From Candidatus Doudnabacteria bacterium RIFCSPHIGHO2_01_FULL_46_14 (GTDB lineage: Bacteria; Patescibacteriota; Doudnabacteria; UBA920; 2-01-FULL-46-14): 64,000 nt of DNA. Below are positions 4,215 to 34,861 of this stretch, piece by piece; position 1 is the first letter of the stretch; every line of letters begins with the position of its first letter. The DNA lies in NCBI GenBank assembly GCA_001779925.1, contig MFEK01000014.1:152168-216167 (forward strand), in the 5' to 3' direction. The notes below the pieces were generated by a model. It saw only the letters and a list, made by a program, of their open reading frames with translations. It did not search any database and had not been told where the DNA came from. A program made the translations under genes and the position numbers.

Positions 4215-4258
4215 CTGAGGTCTACTGGTTCACGATCATTTCCAACCTGGCTTTGTCC

Positions 4259-5317
4259 ATGGTTTTTATTTTCGAGCCGATCTATCTCTATACCCTCGGC
4301 TACAGCCTCATAAAAATCATGGTGTTTTATCTCATGCTTTATGCCTGGTACCTGGTGCTGATCGGCTTTGGTGCGAAATTTGCCAGCCGTTTCGGATACA
4401 AACACTCGATTTTTTTGTCTACCATTTTTTTTGTCCTGTTTTGGTTCGCGCTTTATTTTACAAAAATCCATCCTTTTCTTTTTTATGTCGCGCCTTTTTT
4501 ATTCGCGATGCAAAAATCCTGGTTTTGGCCGGCGTATGATACTGACATGTCGCTTTTTTCCGCTAAGACTCAGCGCGGGCGCGAGGTGGGTGTGCTTTTC
4601 TCTTTGGTGCAAATTGCGTTTATCGCCGGCCCGTTTCTAGGTGGCATGATTTCGGAAAATTTCGGTTTTATGACCCTCTTTGTTTGCTCCTCGATATTAA
4701 TGATTCTCTCCGCGTACCCGCTCTTTTCCAGTCCGGAAATCTATTCGCCTCATCAATTCCGATTCACCAATCTCTGGAAAATGTTTCGGCTTTATCCTTC
4801 CAATTTTTTCGGCTATTGGGGTTATGCCGAGGATTTGATGCTTATGAGTTTGTGGCCGATCTTTATGTATACGGTTGTCGGTGATTTTCAGAGTATGGGC
4901 TTTATTACGACCATTGCGACCATAATCGGAACTGTTATAATGCTCTATGTGGGCAAGCTTATTGACCGCCGCGGCCACAGGCACCGACTCATCGAAAAAT
5001 CCGCCATAGTGTACGGGGTGACCTGGGTTTTGCGGTTTACCGCAAAAGTTCTCCCAATCGTTTTGTTGTTTGATATTTTGACCAAGACTGCCAAGAATAT
5101 CGTGGACGTGCCTATGTATTCTGTTACTTTTGAGAGAGCCTCCGAGCGCGACCCGGATCATGCCATCGCTTATAGCGTATTTTACGAATTCAGCTCGTCA
5201 GTTGGTAAGGTTATCACAGCTCTCGGGGCGATCGGTATTCTTGCCTGGACTGGAAACATTTTTTACGTTTTTGCTTTTGCTGGAGTCTTAACAATGTTTT
5301 ACGGGTTTCTCAAGTAG
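4259..5317 (+). CDS. Multi-pass membrane protein, MFS-transporter-like
   Basis: The whole ORF is strongly hydrophobic with about 10 predicted TM segments. The ORF-track start at 4160 overlaps tsaC; the internal Met at 4259 is the more likely start, but this is uncertain. Confidence 0.5.
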   Translation: MVFIFEPIYLYTLGYSLIKIMVFYLMLYAWYLVLIGFGAKFASRFGYKHSIFLSTIFFVLFWFALYFTKIHPFLFYVAPFLFAMQKSWFWPAYDTDMSLFSAKTQRGREVGVLFSLVQIAFIAGPFLGGMISENFGFMTLFVCSSILMILSAYPLFSSPEIYSPHQFRFTNLWKMFRLYPSNFFGYWGYAEDLMLMSLWPIFMYTVVGDFQSMGFITTIATIIGTVIMLYVGKLIDRRGHRHRLIEKSAIVYGVTWVLRFTAKVLPIVLLFDILTKTAKNIVDVPMYSVTFERASERDPDHAIAYSVFYEFSSSVGKVITALGAIGILAWTGNIFYVFAFAGVLTMFYGFLK

Positions 5318-5502: not shown

Positions 5503-6837
5503 ATGAAATATGAAGCACTAAAAAAAGAGGATCCGGAGATTTATGGTCTGATCCAAAAAGAAGCGAGGCGACAAAAAGAGGGTTTGGAAATGATTCCCTC
5601 GGAAAATTATGCTTCGTCCGCGGTTCTTGAAGCAATGGGTAGCATCCTCAACGTTAAATATGCTGAAGGCTATCCGGGAAAAAGATATTATGGAGGCAAC
5701 ATTTACATTGACGAGATTGAGAGGCTTTGCCAGAAGCGGGCACTCAAGGCGTTTGGGGCCGAAGGTTATCACGTCAATGTTCAGCCGCTTTCGGGAAGCC
5801 CGGCAAACCTGGCCGTGTATTTTGCGCTGCTCACACCCGGGGACACGATAATGTCACTCAAGCTCGATCACGGTGGACATCTCACGCATGGTTCCCCGAC
5901 GAATTTTTCCGGAAAAAATTATAACTTCGTCTTTTATCCTGTCGATCCGAAATTGGAAACACTTGATTATGACGTGATTGAAAAACTCGCGGCCGAACAC
6001 AAGCCGAAAATTATCCTTTCCGGTTATACGGCTTATCCGCGGAGCATCGATTTCGAGCGTATCGCAAAAATCGCCAAGCAAGTCGGAGCGATTTCTATGG
6101 CTGATATCTCACATATTTCGGGCCTGATCGTCGGCGGGGTTCATTCGTCACCGTTTCCATACACCGACGTGGTCATGACCACCACTCATAAAACTCTCCG
6201 TGGTCCGCGGGCGGCCATGCTTTTTTGCCGCGAGGAGTTCAAAGATCAGATCGATAAAGCCGTATTTCCCGGTATGCAGGGCGGTCCCCACGAGCATACG
6301 ATCGCCGGTATCGCTGTTGCTCTGCGCGAGGCGATGACAGATGGATTCAAAGAGTATGTGGCACAGATCTTGAAAAACGCTACAACCTTGGCCAAAAGTC
6401 TGCAGGGCCAGGGTTTGAAGCTTGTCACTGACGGGACTGATAATCATTTGATGTTGATCGACCTGCGGCCGTTTGCCGCAGGGAGTGGAATTTTCGTGGA
6501 AAAAGCTCTCGAAGAAGCGGAAATCAGCGTAAATAAAACCACAGTACCGAATGACCCGATGCCGCCGTACTATCCTTCCGGCATCAGATTAGGGCCGCCG
6601 GCTTTGACCAGCCGGGGTATGAAAGAGCAAGAAATGGAGCAAGCTGGTAAATTGATCGCGCGAATTGTCAAAGAGTTCGCAAAAATCAAATTGCCGGAAG
6701 AGAAAGAAAAACGCGCAGCATCCGTCAAAGAATTCTCAGCCAAGCTCGCGGATAACTCCTTGATTAAAGAGGTTAAATCACAAGTCATTGAACTTGCTAG
6801 TAAATTTCCCGTTCCGGGAATAGATTTACCCCATTAG
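5503..6837 (+). CDS. glyA: Serine hydroxymethyltransferase
   Basis: Full-length SHMT with the motifs SENY, YPGKRYYGG and the PLP-site HKTLRGPR. Confidence 0.95.
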   Translation: MKYEALKKEDPEIYGLIQKEARRQKEGLEMIPSENYASSAVLEAMGSILNVKYAEGYPGKRYYGGNIYIDEIERLCQKRALKAFGAEGYHVNVQPLSGSPANLAVYFALLTPGDTIMSLKLDHGGHLTHGSPTNFSGKNYNFVFYPVDPKLETLDYDVIEKLAAEHKPKIILSGYTAYPRSIDFERIAKIAKQVGAISMADISHISGLIVGGVHSSPFPYTDVVMTTTHKTLRGPRAAMLFCREEFKDQIDKAVFPGMQGGPHEHTIAGIAVALREAMTDGFKEYVAQILKNATTLAKSLQGQGLKLVTDGTDNHLMLIDLRPFAAGSGIFVEKALEEAEISVNKTTVPNDPMPPYYPSGIRLGPPALTSRGMKEQEMEQAGKLIARIVKEFAKIKLPEEKEKRAASVKEFSAKLADNSLIKEVKSQVIELASKFPVPGIDLPH

Positions 6838-17736: not shown

Positions 17737-18009
17737 ATTGAGATTGTGTTTATACCCTGTTTATATCTTGTGGAAAAGCTGTGAATTTGTGCTTGACGCC
17801 TCTCCTTGCTGCTGTTAATATTGCCATCAGAGATTAACTAATAGCGCAGAATGAAAGAGTTTCGCCACATTGTAGTCGCTACCCGCAAGCCGAGCATTCT
17901 CGGTCTTGTTGAGTTTCGGCTGCATTATCGCGGAACCTAAAATCTTAGCTAAAAGCTAATCCCGCAGCAAAAACCAAGGTTCCGCCAAAAGCGGAATTTT
18001 GGTTAATAT

Positions 18010-18081
18010 GACGAGATAGTTCAATTGGTAGAACGGCGGCTTCCAAGCCGTAGGTTGTAGGTTCGATGCCTGCTCTCGTCG
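18010..18081 (+). tRNA. tRNA with a non-canonical anticodon loop: probably Trp(CCA), alternatively Gly(UCC)
   Basis: A perfect 7-bp acceptor stem GACGAGA/TCTCGTC, a tRNA-Trp-like D-arm TAGTTCAATTGGTAGAAC and a T-arm GTAGGTTCGATGCCTGC. The anticodon region GGCGGCTTCCAAGCCGT folds only with a 6- or 8/9-nt loop. Confidence 0.6.
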
Positions 18082-18199
18082 TTCAAGCAGTACATCTCAC
18101 CCCTAAAGGAGGACAAATTTAGTTTCGAGAAAGAAGTATTCGCACTGCCCAGCAACATCGGGTTCACGTTAACATTCGAAAGTAGGATTAGCAGGGCTT

Positions 18200-27299: not shown

Positions 27300-29435
27300 A
27301 TGCCTCGCGAAATACCAATAGAACAAACACGTAATATAGGAATCATTGCTCATATTGATGCCGGAAAAACTACTGTAACTGAGGGCATTTTGTATAACAC
27401 GGGTCTTATACACACAATTGGTTCAGTGCACGAGGGCGAAACCACCACAGACTGGATGGAACAGGAGCGCGAGCGCGGCATCACTATAACCGCCGCGGCG
27501 GTGACCTGTTTTTGGACGCCGAAATGGAGCTCTTCGACGGGCTCAGAGCAGGCAAAGAAGCACAAGATCAACATCATTGATACCCCAGGCCACGTCGATT
27601 TTACGGTAGAGGTTGAACGTAGCCTTCGCGTGCTCGACGGCGCGGTCGTGGTTTTTGACGGCAAAATGGGCGTAGAGCCCCAGTCCGAGACTGTCTGGCG
27701 CCAGGCAGATAAATATCATGTGCCGCGCATGTGTTTCATCAACAAGATCAACCAGACCGGCGGCGATTTTTATAAATCACTCGATTCCATACACAAACGC
27801 TTGTCTGAGGACGCACACCCGATCCAGATCCCCATTGGTTTTGAAAAAGAAATAGTCGGCTTCGTGGACCTCGTGCAGATGAAAGGCTATACGTACAAAG
27901 ACTACACTGACAAAGAGTTCACCATTGTTGATATTCCCGCTGACATGAAAGAGAAAGCCGAAAAGTACCGCCACAACCTTTTGGAAAAAGTTTTGGAGAG
28001 CGATGACGTGCTCATGGAAAAATATTTGGCCGGCGGCGAGATCACAGAAAAAGAATTTCTCGGCGCGATCCGCAAAGCTACGCAGTCCGGTAAATTTTTT
28101 CCAGTACTCGGCGGAGACGGTCGCGGCATTATCGTTCAGACCATTCTCGATGGCGTAACCAATTTTTTACCAAACCCCATTGATAAGGGAGCGGTGAAGG
28201 GAATCGATCTGAACACTCAGGTCGAAATTGAACGCCAGCCGAACGACAGCGAGCCTTTCGCCGCGTTGGCTTTTAAAATCGCGACTGATCCGTTCGTGGG
28301 CAAGCTGGCGTTTTTCCGAGTTTATTCTGGCACGCTCGCCGCAGGAAGCTACGTGCTCAATGGTCGCTCGCAAAATAAAGAACGTGTGGGCCGCATCGTG
28401 CGTATGCACGCGGACAGCCGCGAGGAGATTAAAGAAGTTTTTGCCGGAGATATTGCCGCGCTTGTCGGTCCGAAAGATACTTTCACGGGCGACACGCTTT
28501 GTGACATTGATAAACCAGTAGCGCTGGAAAATATTACTTTCCCTGAGCCGGTCATTTCCCAAGCCATTGAACCAAAAACTAAAGCTGACCAGGAGAAAAT
28601 GGGTATTGCCCTGCAAAAACTCGGCGAAGAAGACCCGACTTTTCATATCAAATCTGACGAGGAAACCGGGCAGACGATTATTTCCGGAATGGGCGAGCTG
28701 CATCTCGAAATCATTGTGGACCGGATGAAGCGCGAGTTCAAGGTGGAGGCTAATGTGGGCGCTCCCCAAGTGGCTTACAAGGAAACCTTCCGCAAAACTG
28801 TGGAGGTCGAAGGCAAATACATTCGCCAAACCGGCGGGCGCGGACAATACGGACATGTTTGGTTGCGCCTTGAGCCGCAAGAGCCAGGTCTTGGCCGCGA
28901 GTTTGTGGACGAGATTGTTGGAGGCACTATTCCCAAAGAATATATTCCCGCGGTCGGCAAAGGCATTATGGAAGCCGCGGACAACGGCGTAATCGCCGGG
29001 TTTCCGGTGGTAGATTTCAAGGTCGCGTTATATGACGGCTCTTTCCATGAGGTTGATTCTTCAGAAATCGCTTTCAAAATCGCAGGCAGCAAAGCTTTCC
29101 AGGAAGGCATGAAGCGCGCGGGTCCTGTGATCCTGGAGCCGGTTATGAAGGTAGAGGTTATCACGCCCGAAGAATATATGGGCGACGTGATGGGAGACAT
29201 CTCTGCCAAGCGCGGTGAAATAAAAGAAATGGCAGATCGTGGCAAAAACAAAATCATCACCGCCACAGTGCCTCTGGGCAGTATGTTTGGCTATGCTACC
29301 ACGATAAGAAGCATGTCCCAGGGACAGGCTTCTTATGTCATGGAATTTTCTCATTACGCCGAAGTGCCAAAGAATGTGGCCGAGAAGATCATAGGCGAAG
29401 GTGCAAAGATCCGCGTCGGCCAGGTTGGAAATTAA
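27300..29435 (+). CDS. fusA: Elongation factor G
   Basis: The G-domain signature AHIDAGKTT plus full-length EF-G domains. Confidence 0.97.
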
Positions 29436-29446
29436 AATCCAGAGTT

Positions 29447-29773
29447 ATGGAACTGAAAAATCTCGTAAATATTTTACGATTCGGCGGACGGTTTATCATC
29501 ATTGATACTGATGGTAATCCCAAGGCAGTACTCATGAGTTATCAAGAGTTTGAAGAGCTTATGGTTGATAAGGTCGCCGGAAAACTGATTGACGAACTCA
29601 AAGAGGTAGAGCGAGTCAACGAAGAGATAACCCGCGCCCAGCTCACTGATCTGCGCGAAGAGGTACTCAAAGAAGATTTCGTGATCACCACCCAGCAAAC
29701 CATGGCCTTTTCTCAATATCCTGAAATCCGCGTTGAACCCCTGCCTGACAACATCGAAGAAGAATTTGATTAA
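29447..29773 (+). CDS. Phd/YefM-antitoxin-like small protein with an acidic C-terminal tail; no cognate toxin
   Basis: The N-terminal region GRFIIIDTDGNPKAVLMSYQEFEEL resembles the YefM/Phd fold signature. It starts 11 nt after the fusA stop. Confidence 0.45.
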   Translation: MELKNLVNILRFGGRFIIIDTDGNPKAVLMSYQEFEELMVDKVAGKLIDELKEVERVNEEITRAQLTDLREEVLKEDFVITTQQTMAFSQYPEIRVEPLPDNIEEEFD

Positions 29774-29776
29774 AGC

Positions 29777-29803
29777 AAAACCCGCCGATGAGGCGGGTTT
29801 TAT
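29777..29803 (+). terminator. Rho-independent terminator
   Basis: AAAACCCGCC-GATG-AGGCGGGTTTT. Confidence 0.8.
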
Positions 29804-29857
29804 CATGCCCTATTTGGTGTTATACTCTGATTTATGTTTCAGACCAAAGGAGGTCAA

Positions 29858-30337
29858 ATGCTCGAAGACATGCTTGCTAATATGGACGACGGATTTTTGA
29901 TCCGGCAAAGCACTGCCATCGGTTCGGATAGTATCGGATACATTGATGAAGCTCGCAGCTTTCTCACTGTGCGCGCGAGGCCTGTATTTATTTTCCTCAC
30001 ATTCATCAATTCTGTCCTTAACGAGGCTGGAGTTATGGGTTGTTTGGTGATGGTGACAATGCTGAGGCGACAGCAACAATCTACCACGGACAGCAATTGG
30101 CTTGAGGATATACTTCCGCGATTGGATCACGATACCTGCATTCGCTATGCTGGGGAAATCGGTCAAGATCTGAAGATGTTTTCCGAATCTGTAAGACAAT
30201 TGATAGACAACAGGGCGGGTGCATTCAAAGCAGTGCTATCATGCATGACTCAGGTTTTTGGCGATGAATTCCTTGTCGGTGCTTTGGTCATGCTCGAAAT
30301 GATCCGCCGTGCCGAAGCAATGAAGGTGAATACTTGA
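29858..30337 (+). CDS. Hypothetical protein (island gene B)
   Basis: AAAGGAGG RBS 6 nt upstream of the ATG; no recognised domain. Confidence 0.5.
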   Translation: MLEDMLANMDDGFLIRQSTAIGSDSIGYIDEARSFLTVRARPVFIFLTFINSVLNEAGVMGCLVMVTMLRRQQQSTTDSNWLEDILPRLDHDTCIRYAGEIGQDLKMFSESVRQLIDNRAGAFKAVLSCMTQVFGDEFLVGALVMLEMIRRAEAMKVNT

Positions 30338-30437
30338 AAACAATGGATTCATTGAACGCGGTGCCACAATGCCCGCGTTTTTTTCACCCTTGTACCGCAC
30401 TTTAACCGATCGCGTAAACTGCAGTATATCCTAGCTA

Positions 30438-30475
30438 CCCTGCCAGTAATCCTCGGCCGAGGATTACTGGCAGGG
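30438..30475. repeat. 38-bp perfect palindrome with no spacer: CCCTGCCAGTAATCCTCGG|CCGAGGATTACTGGCAGGG
   Basis: Read directly from the sequence: two exact 19-bp reverse-complement arms with no spacer. Confidence 0.9.
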
Positions 30476-30494
30476 TGTTCCTGCAAAATCTTGG

Positions 30495-30559
30495 GCAAAA
30501 TAAAAAAAGCTGTCTCGCGTCGTGCGAAACAGCTTTTTAAAAACGAATCAAACTCCTCC
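30495..30559. terminator. Bidirectional terminator module (copy 1 of a roughly 65-bp direct repeat)
   Basis: A-run, GCTGTCTCGCG...GCGAAACAGC hairpin and T-run. It is nearly identical to 31419-31481. Confidence 0.7.
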
Positions 30560-30568
30560 GTAAAAACG

Positions 30569-31330
30569 TCAACGCACAATACTTAAATCGTGCAGATACT
30601 GCTTGCGGAACTCGAATATTTCGCTTAGCCGCCTTCCATCAAACTCGCGGCCGAATCGGAACACTATGGTATCGTCGGGAATTTCGTAGGAATAGACTCC
30701 GTTGACACCTCCGCCCACTACTTTCCAGCCCTCCATCCGAGATTCATCTATCTGGTTTGAGTATACGAGGACTGAAAATTCGGTTCCTTTGAAGAAGCGG
30801 GTTCGCCCAAGTTCAGCTTCATCAGCTTTTTCTTCGCTCCAGAGCATAATGGAATTGGGGACCTGCGGGTCCTGACTTTTTTTAGGGTAGAACACGAGAG
30901 TTCCGTCCCTCCTCCATAGCAAAGGTTGATTTCGGTTAAGGCCAACGTTCAGAAGATTTGGCCATAGCGCGTGCAGTGTTACCACGATCTTGTCGTGATG
31001 TTCGGCGAACCATCCCGAGAGAATCATAGGAAACGAGAACATCATGTTTTCATTCTTTCCGACAGACTCGCGGAGCCTCTTGCTCGTCAAGGCGGCCATG
31101 ACTCCATTGTTTTCTTCTTCTGTTTTGCGCTGGCAGACGCACAAACAGCATATGATCATAGACGCAAGTGTGTCATGACCGTACGTTACCAATAGACTCA
31201 ACGCCCACGCCAGAGTTGTGAATCCTTGCGTTTGAACCGTTTCTCGTATTTTCCTGCTATATAGCATGGCTTCTCTCCTCCTTCGGAGATTCTTTATGTA
31301 ATTCTGTTCTGTAATCCGTCCAATGGACAT
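30569..31330 (-). CDS. Hypothetical protein (island gene C)
   Basis: The start was set at the ATG at 31330 (GAGGA RBS, plus an upstream TTGCTT-17-TATTAT promoter-like sequence). A strong-RBS ATG at 31267 is an alternative. The ORF-track start at 31483 reads through the terminator repeat. Confidence 0.5.
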   Translation of the reverse strand: MSIGRITEQNYIKNLRRRREAMLYSRKIRETVQTQGFTTLAWALSLLVTYGHDTLASMIICCLCVCQRKTEEENNGVMAALTSKRLRESVGKNENMMFSFPMILSGWFAEHHDKIVVTLHALWPNLLNVGLNRNQPLLWRRDGTLVFYPKKSQDPQVPNSIMLWSEEKADEAELGRTRFFKGTEFSVLVYSNQIDESRMEGWKVVGGGVNGVYSYEIPDDTIVFRFGREFDGRRLSEIFEFRKQYLHDLSIVR

Positions 31331-31418
31331 TGGATCGGTGTCCTCACTATCTTCAGAATTAACAAAATATAATACATCGTTTTTCCCAAAAAAGCAAGGG
31401 CACAGTTTTCTCGACTTT

Positions 31419-31481
31419 GGCAAAATAAAAAAGCTGTCTCGCGTCGTGCGAAACAGCTTTTTAAAACGATCAAACTCCTCC
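31419..31481. terminator. Bidirectional terminator module (copy 2)
   Basis: Same A-run/hairpin/T-run sequence as 30495-30559; it ends the minus-strand operon. Confidence 0.7.
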
Positions 31482-31492
31482 ATAGAGTTTTG

Positions 31493-31690
31493 TTAGTAAG
31501 CTCCGACCGGGTTTCGAAGCCAATCAGCGCACTCCTTTCGATCGCGGCCGATATAGATCTCAGCACCGTTGAGAGAATGATCAACGATCACGAACGTTCC
31601 GTCGGTCGCGTTTTCAATCGTGCATTCGAGTGCGTTCCAGTGAGCCTGAAACTCAGGTGGGTACACAAATCCGAATTGTTTGTTTTCCAT
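31493..31690 (-). CDS. Hypothetical small protein (island gene G)
   Basis: A 65-aa ORF 22 nt downstream of gene F with a GAGGT RBS. Confidence 0.4.
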   Translation of the reverse strand: MENKQFGFVYPPEFQAHWNALECTIENATDGTFVIVDHSLNGAEIYIGRDRKECADWLRNPVGAY

Positions 31691-31712
31691 TTCTGGACCT
31701 CGTTTTTTGGGA

Positions 31713-32021
31713 TTACCAAGGTTTGATTTTCCAGTCGTCGGCTTGACCGGCTGTGGTGGCGAGAAAAGCAGATTTGAAGCTTTCGTAGTCAGCCCGCGTT
31801 AGTTCATCGTGTTGCCCGTACCCATCGATCGTCAGCCTTTCCGGCACGGTCTCACCTTCTCTCACGAGAAAATGATGTTTGCTGTACAGGTAGTCCCGAA
31901 GAGCCGGAAACTCGCCGATAGCGCCATTCCTTAGACTACTGAGCGCAAATAAGGCATCGTTGAATTGCTTGCGGTCTCGGGCCTTTGCGTCCTGGTTATT
32001 CCAAAATCTTCTGGCGTTCAT
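31713..32021 (-). CDS. Hypothetical protein (island gene F)
   Basis: GAGGAGG RBS; a 102-aa ORF with no recognised domain. Confidence 0.5.
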   Translation of the reverse strand: MNARRFWNNQDAKARDRKQFNDALFALSSLRNGAIGEFPALRDYLYSKHHFLVREGETVPERLTIDGYGQHDELTRADYESFKSAFLATTAGQADDWKIKPW

Positions 32022-32052
32022 GTGTCCTCCTCTAGAAAATTAGGGATCGTCT

Positions 32053-32137
32053 TTCTCCCTTCAAAATCCACTTTAGAAAAATGAACTTGGAAGGTCATAG
32101 AGCGAACCGCACGAATTGCGCGATTCGCTCTGTTGGG
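32053..32137. promoter_or_regulatory. Repeated operator-like module, copy 1
   Basis: An IR CCCTTCAAA-N-TTGGAAGG plus the nested palindrome AGAGCGAACCGC-N-GCGATTCGCTCT at 32098-32130. Confidence 0.5.
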
Positions 32138-32139
32138 TA

Positions 32140-32457
32140 TCACTGCGTTGGCTGGCTCGAGAGAATTCTGATGCTCAAAAACAAGAACACGACCCAGACT
32201 CCGTAAAACTTTATCCGGAACCAGAAGGCGGCGTTTCGCAGATTCTGGATTTCCATCCAAGCGCGGCCTGGGTTGGCGACTATCCAAGCCTGGGCTGGAT
32301 CAGCGGCTGGATGGCAAAGTGCCGTGAGCGACCGGCGAAGTCGCCGCTGGAAATGCATTTCAAAGACGATCGTGGCTGTCATGGTCGTGACTGCGAGAGC
32401 CATGACGTACCACAAGATTCCCGAAAGCCGGATTACATCTTCCATTTTCTCCTCCAA
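32140..32457 (-). CDS. Hypothetical small membrane protein (island gene E)
   Basis: GGAGG RBS; central TM helices. Confidence 0.45.
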   Translation of the reverse strand: MEEKMEDVIRLSGILWYVMALAVTTMTATIVFEMHFQRRLRRSLTALCHPAADPAQAWIVANPGRAWMEIQNLRNAAFWFRIKFYGVWVVFLFLSIRILSSQPTQ

Positions 32458-32479
32458 ACAATTGAATTTAGGTTTGCTG

Positions 32480-32571
32480 TCCCTTCCAAACCCACCTTAC
32501 TTAAATTTAAAAGTTGAACTTGGAAGGGTCACAGAGCGAATCGCAAATTGCGCGATTCGCTCTGTTGTGTT
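32480..32571. promoter_or_regulatory. Repeated operator-like module, copy 2
   Basis: An IR CCCTTCCAAA-N30-TTGGAAGGG plus the palindrome AGAGCGAATCGC-AAATTGC-GCGATTCGCTCT at 32533-32563, which overlaps the gene D stop. Confidence 0.5.
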
Positions 32572-33049
32572 ACTTGGTCGTTCGAGACATGAGCGCGAAA
32601 ATTTTTCCTGAACCGTCGCTGTAAAGGCCGCTTTTCTTGTTGCTATAGTGCGCGGTCAGAATAACTTTTCGTTTTGCCGGGATCAGGGTTGGGATGCCGC
32701 TCGCGTATACCCAGCCGGTATTAGCTCCCAAAGGGTAATTTGTCCCATTAGCCATGATTTCGAAATTGAGCGTACGCTCATGGGCGCAGACCTGCAGCAA
32801 GACTGCAGCGTCAGCGTATTGAAAACCCACAGGGCGCATCCAATCTCTCTCCACCTCCCACATGGGCCGATGGAAACGGCAGATCAAAACTTCCCGATTC
32901 ACGACTCCATGTCCCCAGTTGCGGAAATGTCCGAAGTGCTGGTCATCGAAATAATCAAAGGTGTCGACGATCTCAGCTTTTAAGAGCATTTCAGGAATTG
33001 TAAGGTCATAGTCAACGTGGCCAAAAAGTCTTGCCAATTTTTCAATCAT
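32570..33049 (-). CDS. Hypothetical protein (island gene D)
   Basis: The start was set at the Met preceded by AAAGGAG; His/Trp-rich; no confident family. Confidence 0.45.
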   Translation of the reverse strand: MIEKLARLFGHVDYDLTIPEMLLKAEIVDTFDYFDDQHFGHFRNWGHGVVNREVLICRFHRPMWEVERDWMRPVGFQYADAAVLLQVCAHERTLNFEIMANGTNYPLGANTGWVYASGIPTLIPAKRKVILTAHYSNKKSGLYSDGSGKIFALMSRTTK

Positions 33050-33218
33050 TTGGAATCTCCTTTCAAATTCAGACTTCACAGGTGCACTATGCACCTCCGT
33101 CCAAACCCTATTCAGAAACTCCGCAAAAAAAGTTTCGAAGGTGCTGTTTTAGAATATCCTCATTTTCATCTATACTAGGTCATGATTTCCTCCTTTAGAA
33201 AATCTCGGGTTTTGCATT

Positions 33219-33262
33219 CTCCTTTCCAAATTCACTAAACTCTTGTAGCAAACTTGGAAGGA
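33219..33262. promoter_or_regulatory. Repeated operator-like module, copy 3 (IR part only)
   Basis: CCTTTCCAAA-N-ACTTGGAAGG upstream of gene D. Confidence 0.4.
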
Positions 33263-33514
33263 AAAACGACTTCCAATCCTAGCATATTTTTGCGGTTTTG
33301 TCGAGCGGGGCTCCATCCTTCATAATCTCCCCCTTATCATGGGGGAGAGAACAGCGGAACATCAAAAAACCCGCCTAATTGGCGGATTGGGATTTTTGGG
33401 CACAGAGTATTATTTTACTCCTTTTTGGCGGTATTGTCAATACTCGAGTTGCTGCTTTTGGCTTAGATAAGCGAAAAGGGAACTTTATTTTGGCTAGGGT
33501 TAGCCAAAAGATGC

Positions 33515-33543
33515 CTGGATTCCGGATCAAGTCCGGAATGACA
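33515..33543. repeat. 29-bp hairpin repeat (copy 2)
   Basis: Identical to 19133-19161. Confidence 0.8.
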
Positions 33544-33670
33544 GGAATTAGGGGGAGAAAATAGCGGAAATCCTTGACTCTGCTGTTCGGAACTGCTATA
33601 TTTTGACAGTTAGCCTGAATTTAATTATAATCTTTAAACAATATTAATCTTTTAGGAGTTACATAAACGC

Positions 33671-34861
33671 ATGGCTGAAGGGAAATTTTCACGAAATAAG
33701 CCCCACATCAACGTTGGAACCATTGGACACGTTGACCACGGCAAGACCACGCTGACCGCAGCGATTACGCATTATTTGGTGTCCAAGGGCATTGCCGGAA
33801 ACAAAGAGCGCTCTTATGACTCCATTGATAACGCGCCGGAAGAAAAGGCTCGCGGCATCACTATCAACACCTCGCACGTCGAATACGAGAGCGAAAAGCG
33901 CCACTACGCGCACGTTGACGCTCCGGGACATGCTGATTACATCAAAAACATGATCACTGGCGCGGCCCAAATGGACGGCGCGGTTTTGGTCGTGTCTGCC
34001 GCTGACGGCCCAATGCCGCAGACTCGCGAACACATTCTGCTTGCGAGACAGGTAGGCGTGCCGCACATCATTGTGTTCCTCAACAAAGTAGACATGGTTG
34101 ATGATAAAGAACTTATTGACCTCGTAGAAGAAGAGGTCCGCGATTTGCTTAACAAATATCAGTACCCGGGTAAAGACACTCCGATCATCCGCGGCTCTGC
34201 TCTCAAAGCTGTTGAAAACGATGCTGCCGGCCTCGAATCTATCGGCAAGCTTGTCGAAACCATGGACACTTATTTCCCAGAGCCGACACGTGACACTGAC
34301 AAGCCGTTCCTCATGCCGATCGAAGACATTTTTTCCATTGAAGGACGCGGCACTGTGGTTACCGGAAGAATCGAGCGTGGCATGATCAAGCTTAACGATG
34401 AGGTGGAAATCATCGGTCTCAAAGACACACAGAAGACTGTGGTGACCGGCATTGAAATGTTCAACAAATCCCTGGACGAAGGCAGAGCTGGCGACAACGC
34501 CGGCATCCTTATCCGCGGCACCAAAAAAGAAGACGTGGAACGAGGCCAGGTTTTGGCCAAGCCCGGTTCAATCACTCCGCATACCGAGTTCGAAGCTGAG
34601 GTATACATTCTGACCAAAGAAGAAGGCGGCAGACATACAGCATTCTTTTCCGGTTACAAACCGCAGTTTTATATCCGCACCACTGATGTTACCGGTGATG
34701 TTACCTTGGCTGCCGGCAAAGAAATGGTTATGCCTGGCGATACAGTTAACCTTACAATCAAGCTCATCAGCCCGGTTGCTTTGGAAGAGAAATCCAAATT
34801 CGCCATCCGCGAAGGCGGGCACACTGTCGGCGCGGGCGTTGTAACCAAGATTCTGAAATAA
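33671..34861 (+). CDS. tuf: Elongation factor Tu
   Basis: [17 protein letters not shown] and NKVD motifs; full-length EF-Tu. Confidence 0.98.

Follow-up and report, generated by a model that had tools for sequence, protein, structure and literature searches.

Bacteria of the candidate phyla radiation (CPR) have tiny genomes, and how they gain, express and discard accessory genes is little understood. We describe here a portable intergenic module of ~100 to 130 nucleotides (nt) that occurs three times in a 64-kb stretch of DNA (the window) from a Candidatus Doudnabacteria genome of the Rifle aquifer. The same DNA, letter for letter, is present on scaffold ANAN16-1...scaffold_981, and its proteins carry A2751_038xx names. 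The module lies in a 4.2-kb island (29436-33670) that splits the normally contiguous genes fusA (27300-29435, plus strand) and tuf (33671-34861, plus strand), within the otherwise highly conserved rpsL-rpsG-fusA-tuf-rpsJ cluster. In total, 15 copies were found in eight CPR populations, beside unrelated orphan open reading frames (ORFans), and comparison of these copies establishes structure, strand, conservation and breakpoints. We consider it moderately probable that the module provides RNA-level punctuation and expression and also serves as a recombination anchor for ORFan exchange.

The island genes and module parts are listed here in gene sense, starting from the tuf side (aa, amino acids; UTR, untranslated region; ORF, open reading frame).

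33276-33304, minus strand: island promoter P1, TCGACA-17-TAGGAT with a TG extension, from a promoter scan
33221-33261, minus strand: hairpin 2 of copy 3, the 5'-UTR copy (49.4 bits, E 1e-11)
33175-33220, minus strand: conserved leader after copy 3, with a GGAGGA ribosome-binding site and then a mini-ORF
32570-33049, minus strand: gene D, 159-aa ORFan without Pfam or PHROG match
32531-32565, minus strand: hairpin 1 of copy 2, a perfect 14-bp stem with a 7-nt loop, 4 nt past the D stop codon (32570-32572)
32481-32527, minus strand: hairpin 2 of copy 2 (52.5 bits, E 1e-12)
32446-32480, minus strand: leader and ribosome-binding site of gene E, from the leader alignment
32140-32445, minus strand: gene E, 101-aa predicted membrane ORFan without Pfam or PHROG match
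32099-32131, minus strand: hairpin 1 of copy 1, a 14-bp stem with one sense-strand G.U pair, 8 nt past the E stop codon (32140-32142)
32057-32094, minus strand: hairpin 2 of copy 1 (50.6 bits), with one C.U mismatch
32022-32056, minus strand: leader and ribosome-binding site of gene F, near-identical to the leader of copy A in L103, from another population
31713-32021, minus strand: gene F, 102-aa ORFan without Pfam or PHROG match
31493-31690, minus strand: gene G, 65-aa ORFan, 22 nt past F with no module in between
31415-31484, minus strand: type-2 module, a canonical two-way intrinsic terminator (stem 31428-31462 plus U-tract) that closes the D-G unit
30569-31267, minus strand: gene H, 232 aa
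30490-30562, minus strand: second copy of the type-2 module, after H (stem 30504-30538; 93% identical over 73 nt)

The pattern CCTTCCAAGTT-N15-30-TTTKGAARGG matched the window three times, always on the minus strand, versus 0.00 matches expected from 100 shuffles. A covariance model built from 12 copies of several genomes recovered all three at E ~1e-12 and found no further copy in the 64 kb; the three lie within 1.2 kb. An earlier sequence-only reading of this stretch had reported a thrice-repeated inverted repeat on this strand, which these searches uphold, and several of its details are corrected here. The left arms of copies 1 and 3, given there as CCCTTCCAAA, are CCCTTCAAAA and CCTTTCCAAA, respectively, and the arms are not a fixed 30 nt apart, the gaps being 19, 27 and 21 nt in copies 1, 2 and 3. 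Of two palindromes described as perfect, the one at 32531-32565 is so (14 + 14 nt, 7-nt loop), and the one at 32099-32131 has a C.A mismatch on the plus strand that reads as G.U on the minus strand. Both were said to overlap stop codons and to be nested in the repeat; the distances to the stop codons are 4 and 8 nt, and the palindromes are adjacent to the repeat.

Internal copies have the order stop codon, hairpin 1, 2- to 4-nt linker, hairpin 2, ~35-nt leader, GGAGGA and ATG. Copies 1 and 2 are 87% identical over 68 nt; they have hairpin 1 and the 5' arm in common, not the loop or the downstream sequence. Copy 3 has no hairpin 1 because no gene lies upstream of it. A repeat was also claimed before each of the genes D, E and F, and three copies are indeed present, but copy 3 is 172 nt upstream of D, right after the promoter, and is followed by the 2-codon mini-ORF ATG ACC TAG (33175-33183, minus strand) 3' of its leader. 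The strong ribosome-binding site AAAGGAGGA precedes this mini-ORF (33175-33195, minus strand), at the point where a real gene begins after other leader copies; the two together may be a lost-cassette remnant or a start-stop leader element. A fourth, degenerate copy considered at 33057-33143 was rejected (8.4 bits, E 5.8, not significant; not the minimum-energy fold).

Hairpin 2 is a helix of 17 bp whose base is conserved in sequence (CCUUCCAAGUU / UUUGGAAGG) and whose loop has a few to ~50 nt. Across the 15 copies, 95.7% of its cells are paired. Its pairing and covariation scores were reached by 0 of 500 shuffles, shifting the partner columns lowered pairing to 33 to 62%, and RNAalifold independently predicted the same 17 pairs. 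The lower 9 to 11 bp are invariant save for C-to-U changes that keep U.G pairs; the upper pairs co-vary, and the tenth pair is G.U in every copy. Wobble pairs occupy 52 of 255 helix cells (~20%; the invariant G.U plus 37 others) and are A.C mismatches on the opposite strand, and therefore the structure forms on the sense strand only. This strand, always the sense strand of the flanking genes, gives the more stable hairpin 2 in 14 of the 15 copies, often by ~10 kcal/mol or more. In the orthologue of copy 3 in L096, another population, pairing is retained through C-to-U and U-to-C/G changes. These results suggest that the sense strand folds into this hairpin, either as RNA or, with lower probability, as single-stranded DNA.

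Hairpin 1 is always a perfect stem, of 6 to 19 bp, that begins a few to ~50 nt past the stop codon and ends 1 to 4 nt before hairpin 2. Its sequence differs between genomes, with at least eight unrelated versions, e.g., AGAGCGAATCGC, GGGCGACTGCAC, GACGGGACGTTCA, GGGACAGGC, TGGCGCACC, CCGGAGCGGCGGCGCGAAAC and GGAGCATTG. Downstream of hairpin 2, the conserved leader GGGAGAA..AAAACCCTAAATTT..CTAGAGGAGGA..ATGAA is present in the window copies, L096a, L103A and L033a, and this leader and its ribosome-binding site precede unrelated ORFs across genomes. A U-tract follows hairpin 2 in 4 of the 15 copies (L059, L018b, L103B and L103C), so that hairpin 2 would be an intrinsic-terminator stem there; the window copies have none and continue with GACAGC..., GAGAAAG... 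and AGAATG.... The hairpin would thus be a leader or intercistronic stem-loop at some sites and the stem of a terminator at others, and either role belongs to the RNA level. At gathering score, Rfam 15 matched nothing in the window other than three tRNAs; in E-value mode over 31900-33400, the best hit (19.8 bits, E 0.51) was a terminator-like stem outside the module, and all hits, weak and at chance level, fell well short of gathering scores. A promoter within hairpin 2 or its 3' arm was considered and rejected, as a -10 box 16 to 18 nt past TTGGAA was inconsistent by eye and the promoter scan gave none.

Relatives were sought with arm-pattern scans of 185,579 reference genomes (a species set), Joint Genome Institute (JGI) metagenomes and IMG/VR. 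The reference genomes gave 17 matches, of which two loci are real, each having the full two-hairpin module next to tuf in a CPR genome; exact-pattern copies were present in only two genomes of this set, with one and two copies. Five of 59 JGI matches are real and contributed L033, L046 and L083, and none of seven IMG/VR matches is. The remaining matches are close to the estimated chance number and include tRNA-Gly(UCC) genes, whose anticodon arm contains CCTTCCAAGTT. Mimicry of the tRNA-Gly(UCC) anticodon loop by the 5' arm was rejected: the flanking "stem" positions are unconserved and such a 7-mer match is expected by chance. Separately, a tRNA gene at 18009-18082 (plus strand; Rfam 58.6 bits), to which ARAGORN gives the two-base anticodon "(cc)", has a 6-nt loop (UUCCAA) when its anticodon stem is drawn with the canonical 5 bp, and it resembles tRNA-Gly(UCC) without position 32.

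Two further routes yielded more copies. Use of the Phd/YefM-like gene 3' of fusA as a search anchor led to the locus in the close relative L096 (Phd-like protein 90% identical) and in L102-L106, from another Rifle population. The covariance model of hairpin 2 then added three L103 copies whose 5' arm, CCTTCTAAG, is invisible to the pattern scan; these copies are therefore independent of its search bias. The eight populations are the window, L059/L014, L018, L033, L046, L083, L096 and L102-106, and in four of them the module is at the fusA-tuf locus. In L014 (Doudnabacteria 01_48_18), it lies 3' of an H homologue, and in L018 two copies stand on either side of an M50 peptidase gene between tuf and rpsJ. 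The fusA-tuf island of L059 also holds a truncated IS200-like Y1 transposase gene (2266-2607; Pfam Y1_Tnp, E 5e-22) with its own flanking hairpins, so this locus accepts insertion sequences too. As far as sampled, the module is specific to Doudnabacteria-like CPR bacteria.

The genes next to the modules are mutually unrelated ORFans. Pfam and PHROG searches with the window island proteins D, E, F, G and H returned zero matches. H alone has a counterpart in another module-bearing genome (32% identity to L059 732-1457), and a word-indexed protein search for its relatives returned only H itself. The Phd/YefM-like gene directly 3' of fusA (29447-29773, plus strand) encodes a long acidic C-terminal tail; its Pfam match is below threshold (E 4e-5, 23.6 bits versus a 29.8-bit cut-off). 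It is kept after fusA in every recovered Doudnabacteria relative, with no toxin partner gene adjoining.

P1, whose start site is predicted ~8 nt upstream of hairpin 2 of copy 3, is kept in L059 and L096. In the promoter scan only copy 3 adjoins a promoter, at ~+8 to +48 of P1, and copy L096a likewise lies ~8 nt after the conserved promoter; no promoter-like site was found near copies 1 and 2. The type-2 terminator has the sequence AAAAAGCTGTTTCGCACGACGCGAGACAGCTTTTTT with ~20 nt of conserved upstream flank, and it also closes the L096 island (4255-4326). Canonical terminators thus end both D-G and H; ordinary terminators are therefore used here, and the two-hairpin modules without a U-tract are internal to the transcription unit.

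Several other elements were observed around these signals. One gene caller runs through the type-2 terminator and gives H a length of 304 aa, probably in error. A near-consensus promoter, TTGACA-17-TAAAAT (33440-33412, minus strand), lies between the island promoter and tuf and is followed ~25 nt on by a terminator-like hairpin and U-tract (33388-33368). This promoter-hairpin unit (33360-33440, minus strand) is conserved in three Doudnabacteria genomes, the relatives' units being at L059 ~470-560 and L096 ~6125-6210, and it may yield a ~45-nt transcript, possibly a small RNA. Just past the last island terminator is a perfect 40-bp palindrome without spacer (30437-30476; ACCCTGCCAGTAATCCTCGG / CCGAGGATTACTGGCAGGGT). 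An intergenic motif with a CGATCG core (consensus ~GTTTTACACGATCGTTAAAA) recurs just after island terminators, at 30396-30424 (minus strand) in the window and at L059 ~1570-1595 and 2160-2190, L103 ~2025-2045 and L096 ~4225-4245. In L059 it stands on both sides of a PaaX-like gene. It could be an operator or promoter element.

Gene content changes at the edges of the module. Starting on the tuf side, the window and L096 can be aligned across the promoter and hairpin 2 to 14 nt beyond hairpin 2 (33207), and alignment resumes at the terminator and at the Phd-like gene. Between these points the window has D-E-F-G, whereas L096 has unrelated genes of 144 and 311 aa, separated by a two-hairpin module with a new hairpin 1 sequence. 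L103 and L104 are 98.9% identical from the Phd-like gene through hairpin 1 of one module and unrelated immediately upstream of it, where their genes differ. Identical hairpins 1 and 2 after different upstream genes mark the module as a spacer that genes share and not as a site belonging to each gene. Judging from these alignments, the whole module stays constant as a spacer and the ORFs are what is exchanged. Breaks in contigs and scaffolds fall at modules, and the N-gap of L103 begins inside hairpin 1.

In L059 promoter P1 leads straight into the H leader; relative to L059, the window therefore carries an insert of ~1.95 kb between promoter and H. Upstream of H, at window ~31330-31415 (minus strand), the island promoter and 5' UTR recur in degenerate form, and the likeness of this second copy to the L059 promoter region suggests that the D-G block was inserted between promoter and H. 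The alignments fit homologous exchange between repeated modules better than a crossover inside hairpin 2. Some exchange within hairpin 2 is possible, given what copies 1 and 2 do and do not have in common. The sequence-only reading had offered cassette-like acquisition of each gene with its own flanking site as one explanation. The cassette layout stands, with a common promoter, modules and terminator, unrelated genes in between and breaks at module edges; the attachment of a module to one particular gene does not.

We infer from these comparisons an RNA function for the module and a sequence-specific partner for its invariant stem. The module would act within the transcript, where hairpin 1 may cap the 3' end of the upstream cistron and hairpin 2 may form a leader or 5'-end stem-loop for the next cistron or, with a U-tract, an intrinsic-terminator hairpin. 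A polycistronic island RNA would thereby be punctuated gene by gene, and a sequence-specific factor would probably recognise the invariant stem base. At the DNA level, the comparisons show the repeated modules, shared promoter and shared terminator to be conserved anchors between which strains exchange unrelated ORFans.

Several points weigh against this proposal. The window copies have no U-tract and hence are not intrinsic terminators, and processing, stabilisation and termination are all roles predicted from sequence. The basal 9 to 11 bp never co-vary, so that structural roles alone would be insufficient and a sequence-specific partner would be required; H excepted, no protein is common to the module-bearing loci as a candidate for that partner. 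Copies are few (~1 to 3 per locus, apparently at one locus per genome), which is unusual for a housekeeping RNase site. The first instances were found with a pattern that fixes the arms, which inflates apparent arm conservation; the later model-based search, despite this arm-fixed start, yielded copies with C-to-U variants only. Finally, folded single-stranded DNA of the same strand would give the same strand asymmetry.

In the main rival explanation, which we rate as unlikely, hairpin 2 is a site-specific recombination site that works as folded single-stranded DNA, like attC, and the island is an integrase-less cassette array captured after one promoter. A conserved hairpin at each junction between small, promoterless, same-direction ORFans behind one conserved promoter would fit such an array, as would the strand-asymmetric structure, but no recombinase, integron integrase included, is listed within 10 kb on either side, where the Pfam matches of all called genes are limited to ribosomal proteins, EF-G, EF-Tu, radical SAM and peptidase M50. 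The stem base is kept and the apical stem and loop vary (few to ~50 nt), as in attC, yet the arms are unlike RYYYAAC/GTTRRRY, the stable-strand helix has neither extrahelical bases nor an unpaired central spacer, and the separate hairpin 1 has no attC counterpart. Close relatives differ in gene content, the few copies are clustered at one locus per genome, and the match of copies 1 and 2 in hairpin 1 and the 5' arm alone hints at crossovers inside hairpin 2; the breakpoints, however, are at the outer module edges (the 5' edge of hairpin 1 and the 3' end of the leader), and identical hairpins 1 and 2 follow different upstream genes, with which an attC site should travel. The U-tract variants also suggest an RNA role. 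On a related view, which we take to be decidedly unlikely, hairpin 2 is the recombination site of an undescribed CPR gene-capture platform made up of a tuf-side promoter, ORFan cassettes delimited by folded DNA and an unlinked recombinase of non-integron type. If true, this platform would be an independently arisen functional analogue of integrons in ultra-small symbiotic bacteria.

Two other explanations fare worse. The sequence-only reading had offered, as its other explanation, coordinated regulation by one DNA-binding protein, taken here as a dimeric regulator that controls D, E and F together through a double-stranded DNA operator. Conserved inverted arms do precede each of the three genes, but their spacing is variable, the loops having a few to ~50 nt; covariation in the inter-arm sequence retains pairing, which is needless for a duplex operator; and, with 20% of helix positions (52 of 255) wobble pairs, the arms are not true reverse complements. 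The position of copy 3 at P1 suits an operator, but no promoter is near copies 1 and 2, and some copies elsewhere close operons, with a U-tract or convergent gene next (L018b and L103C). In relatives, a gene beside a module codes for a winged-helix protein (L018) or a PaaX-like one (L059), whereas no DNA-binding domain is detected by Pfam in the window island proteins. Wobble pairs, variable loops and covariation rule out a duplex operator of fixed geometry; the spacing and wobble data largely refute the operator reading, which we find barely credible.

We also consider it very improbable that the copies are functionless remnants, left by a local duplication or by a very small palindromic mobile element inserting beside hairpins, similar to a miniature inverted-repeat transposable element (MITE) or a repetitive extragenic palindromic (REP) sequence. 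The 87% identity of copies 1 and 2 and the further duplicated block in the island, the type-2 terminator, could be read in this way, but the stem base is invariant across the eight populations while loops, hairpin 1 and flanking genes have fully diverged, and its sole changes are pairing-preserving transitions. Decay of simple tandem duplicates, which the sequence-only reading had named as the outcome that would count against it, fails as an explanation, since the flanking genes are mutually unrelated and the module recurs in other genomes. The flanks show no target-site duplications, on which ground a MITE was rejected, and the copies are not spread over the genome (three in 64 kb; one or two exact copies in each of the only two reference genomes with any). 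An IS200-like transposase fragment is present in the L059 island, but that element has its own, different hairpins. Phage or plasmid origin was rejected too: blastn gave no match to GenBank phages or plasmids, IMG/VR no real match, and the flanking proteins no PHROG. Pairs of DNA uptake sequences were rejected because the remaining 62 kb of the window lack the motif; a copy number this low, at a single locus, excludes DNA uptake sequences as well as REP-like elements.

Should the module prove to be a cassette for RNA punctuation and expression, it would represent a new candidate structured RNA motif with a sequence-specific partner. The hot spot, with unrelated ORFans between module copies, a shared promoter before and a shared terminator after them, would also offer a practical marker for strain-variable genes in Doudnabacteria metagenomes, whose assemblies break at this locus.

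Known systems resemble the module in part. DNA operators have fixed half-site spacing, true two-fold symmetry and a promoter position, and canonical intrinsic terminators have a G+C-rich hairpin with an immediate U-tract; the module differs from the former in spacing and symmetry and, for two of its three window copies, in lying well away from promoters, and its window copies differ from the latter. Correia elements, which number in the hundreds in Neisseria, are MITEs of 100 to 155 bp that have 26-bp terminal repeats and duplicate a TA target. Like the module, they are short intergenic inverted repeats, able to supply promoters or terminators and to form transcript hairpins that are cleaved by RNase III; the module, in contrast, has no target duplication and is confined to one locus.

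Closer in placement are the stem-loops for intercistronic processing or stabilisation, such as the RNase III sites of the phage T7 early region and REP hairpins, e.g., between malE and malF. These too are stable hairpins just past stop codons in polycistronic units, one per gene junction, and discrete, differentially stable cistron RNAs would be expected here as well. They have no cross-species conservation of stem sequence and no invariant G.U, however, and cleavage of the module would be a prediction. REPs are present in hundreds of copies per genome. Together with bacterial interspersed mosaic elements (BIMEs) and REPINs, they have many dispersed copies and a REP-associated tyrosine transposase (RAYT), in contrast to the three copies of the module in 64 kb at a single locus; a tblastn search of the window for a Y1 transposase found none.

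Clusters of attC sites without an integrase (CALIN) share with the island a hairpin at every junction, small same-direction ORFans, one promoter, a conserved stem base with a variable top, strand asymmetry and gene content that varies between relatives; an integrase is optional for CALIN arrays. The attC core sites are RYYYAAC (R'') and GTTRRRY (R'), and AAC/GTT is closed by a C-G pair. By eye, the module arms CCTTCCAAG and TTTGGAAGG do not have this form, and the position equivalent to the C-G pair is an invariant G.T (G.U). An attC site folds into one imperfect hairpin that contains extrahelical bases and, at its centre, an unpaired spacer, whereas the module has a continuous 17-bp helix plus hairpin 1. 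An attC site is inherited with its upstream gene, whereas the L103 and L104 hairpins follow unrelated ones, and the breakpoints here are at module edges.

The promoter-early stem-loops (PeSLs) of T4-type phages are the closest described analogue. They are mobile regulatory cassettes (Arbiol et al. 2010, PMC2839356; Comeau et al. 2014, PMC4122927): in variable regions, these small conserved motifs of promoter and terminator stand between ORFans, and recombination between them shuffles genes (PMC2839356, PMC4122927). A PeSL is a strong sigma-70 promoter plus a terminator stem-loop in a phage genome, whereas the present module lies in a bacterial chromosome and comprises two adjacent hairpins, a leader and a ribosome-binding site. 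Its internal window copies have no detectable promoter or U-tract, and its conserved part is the hairpin 2 stem, not a promoter. Both are small composite regulatory motifs, stem-loop included, that are repeated between non-essential ORFans of a variable region bounded by core genes, here fusA and tuf. Two features of PeSLs were looked for and found: in the window, L096, L059 and L102-106, unrelated ORFans are separated by modules, and replacement or indel breakpoints fall at the motif (window versus L096; L103 versus L104). If the module also drives gene exchange, the "mobile regulatory cassette" principle would extend from T4-type phages to cellular genomes.

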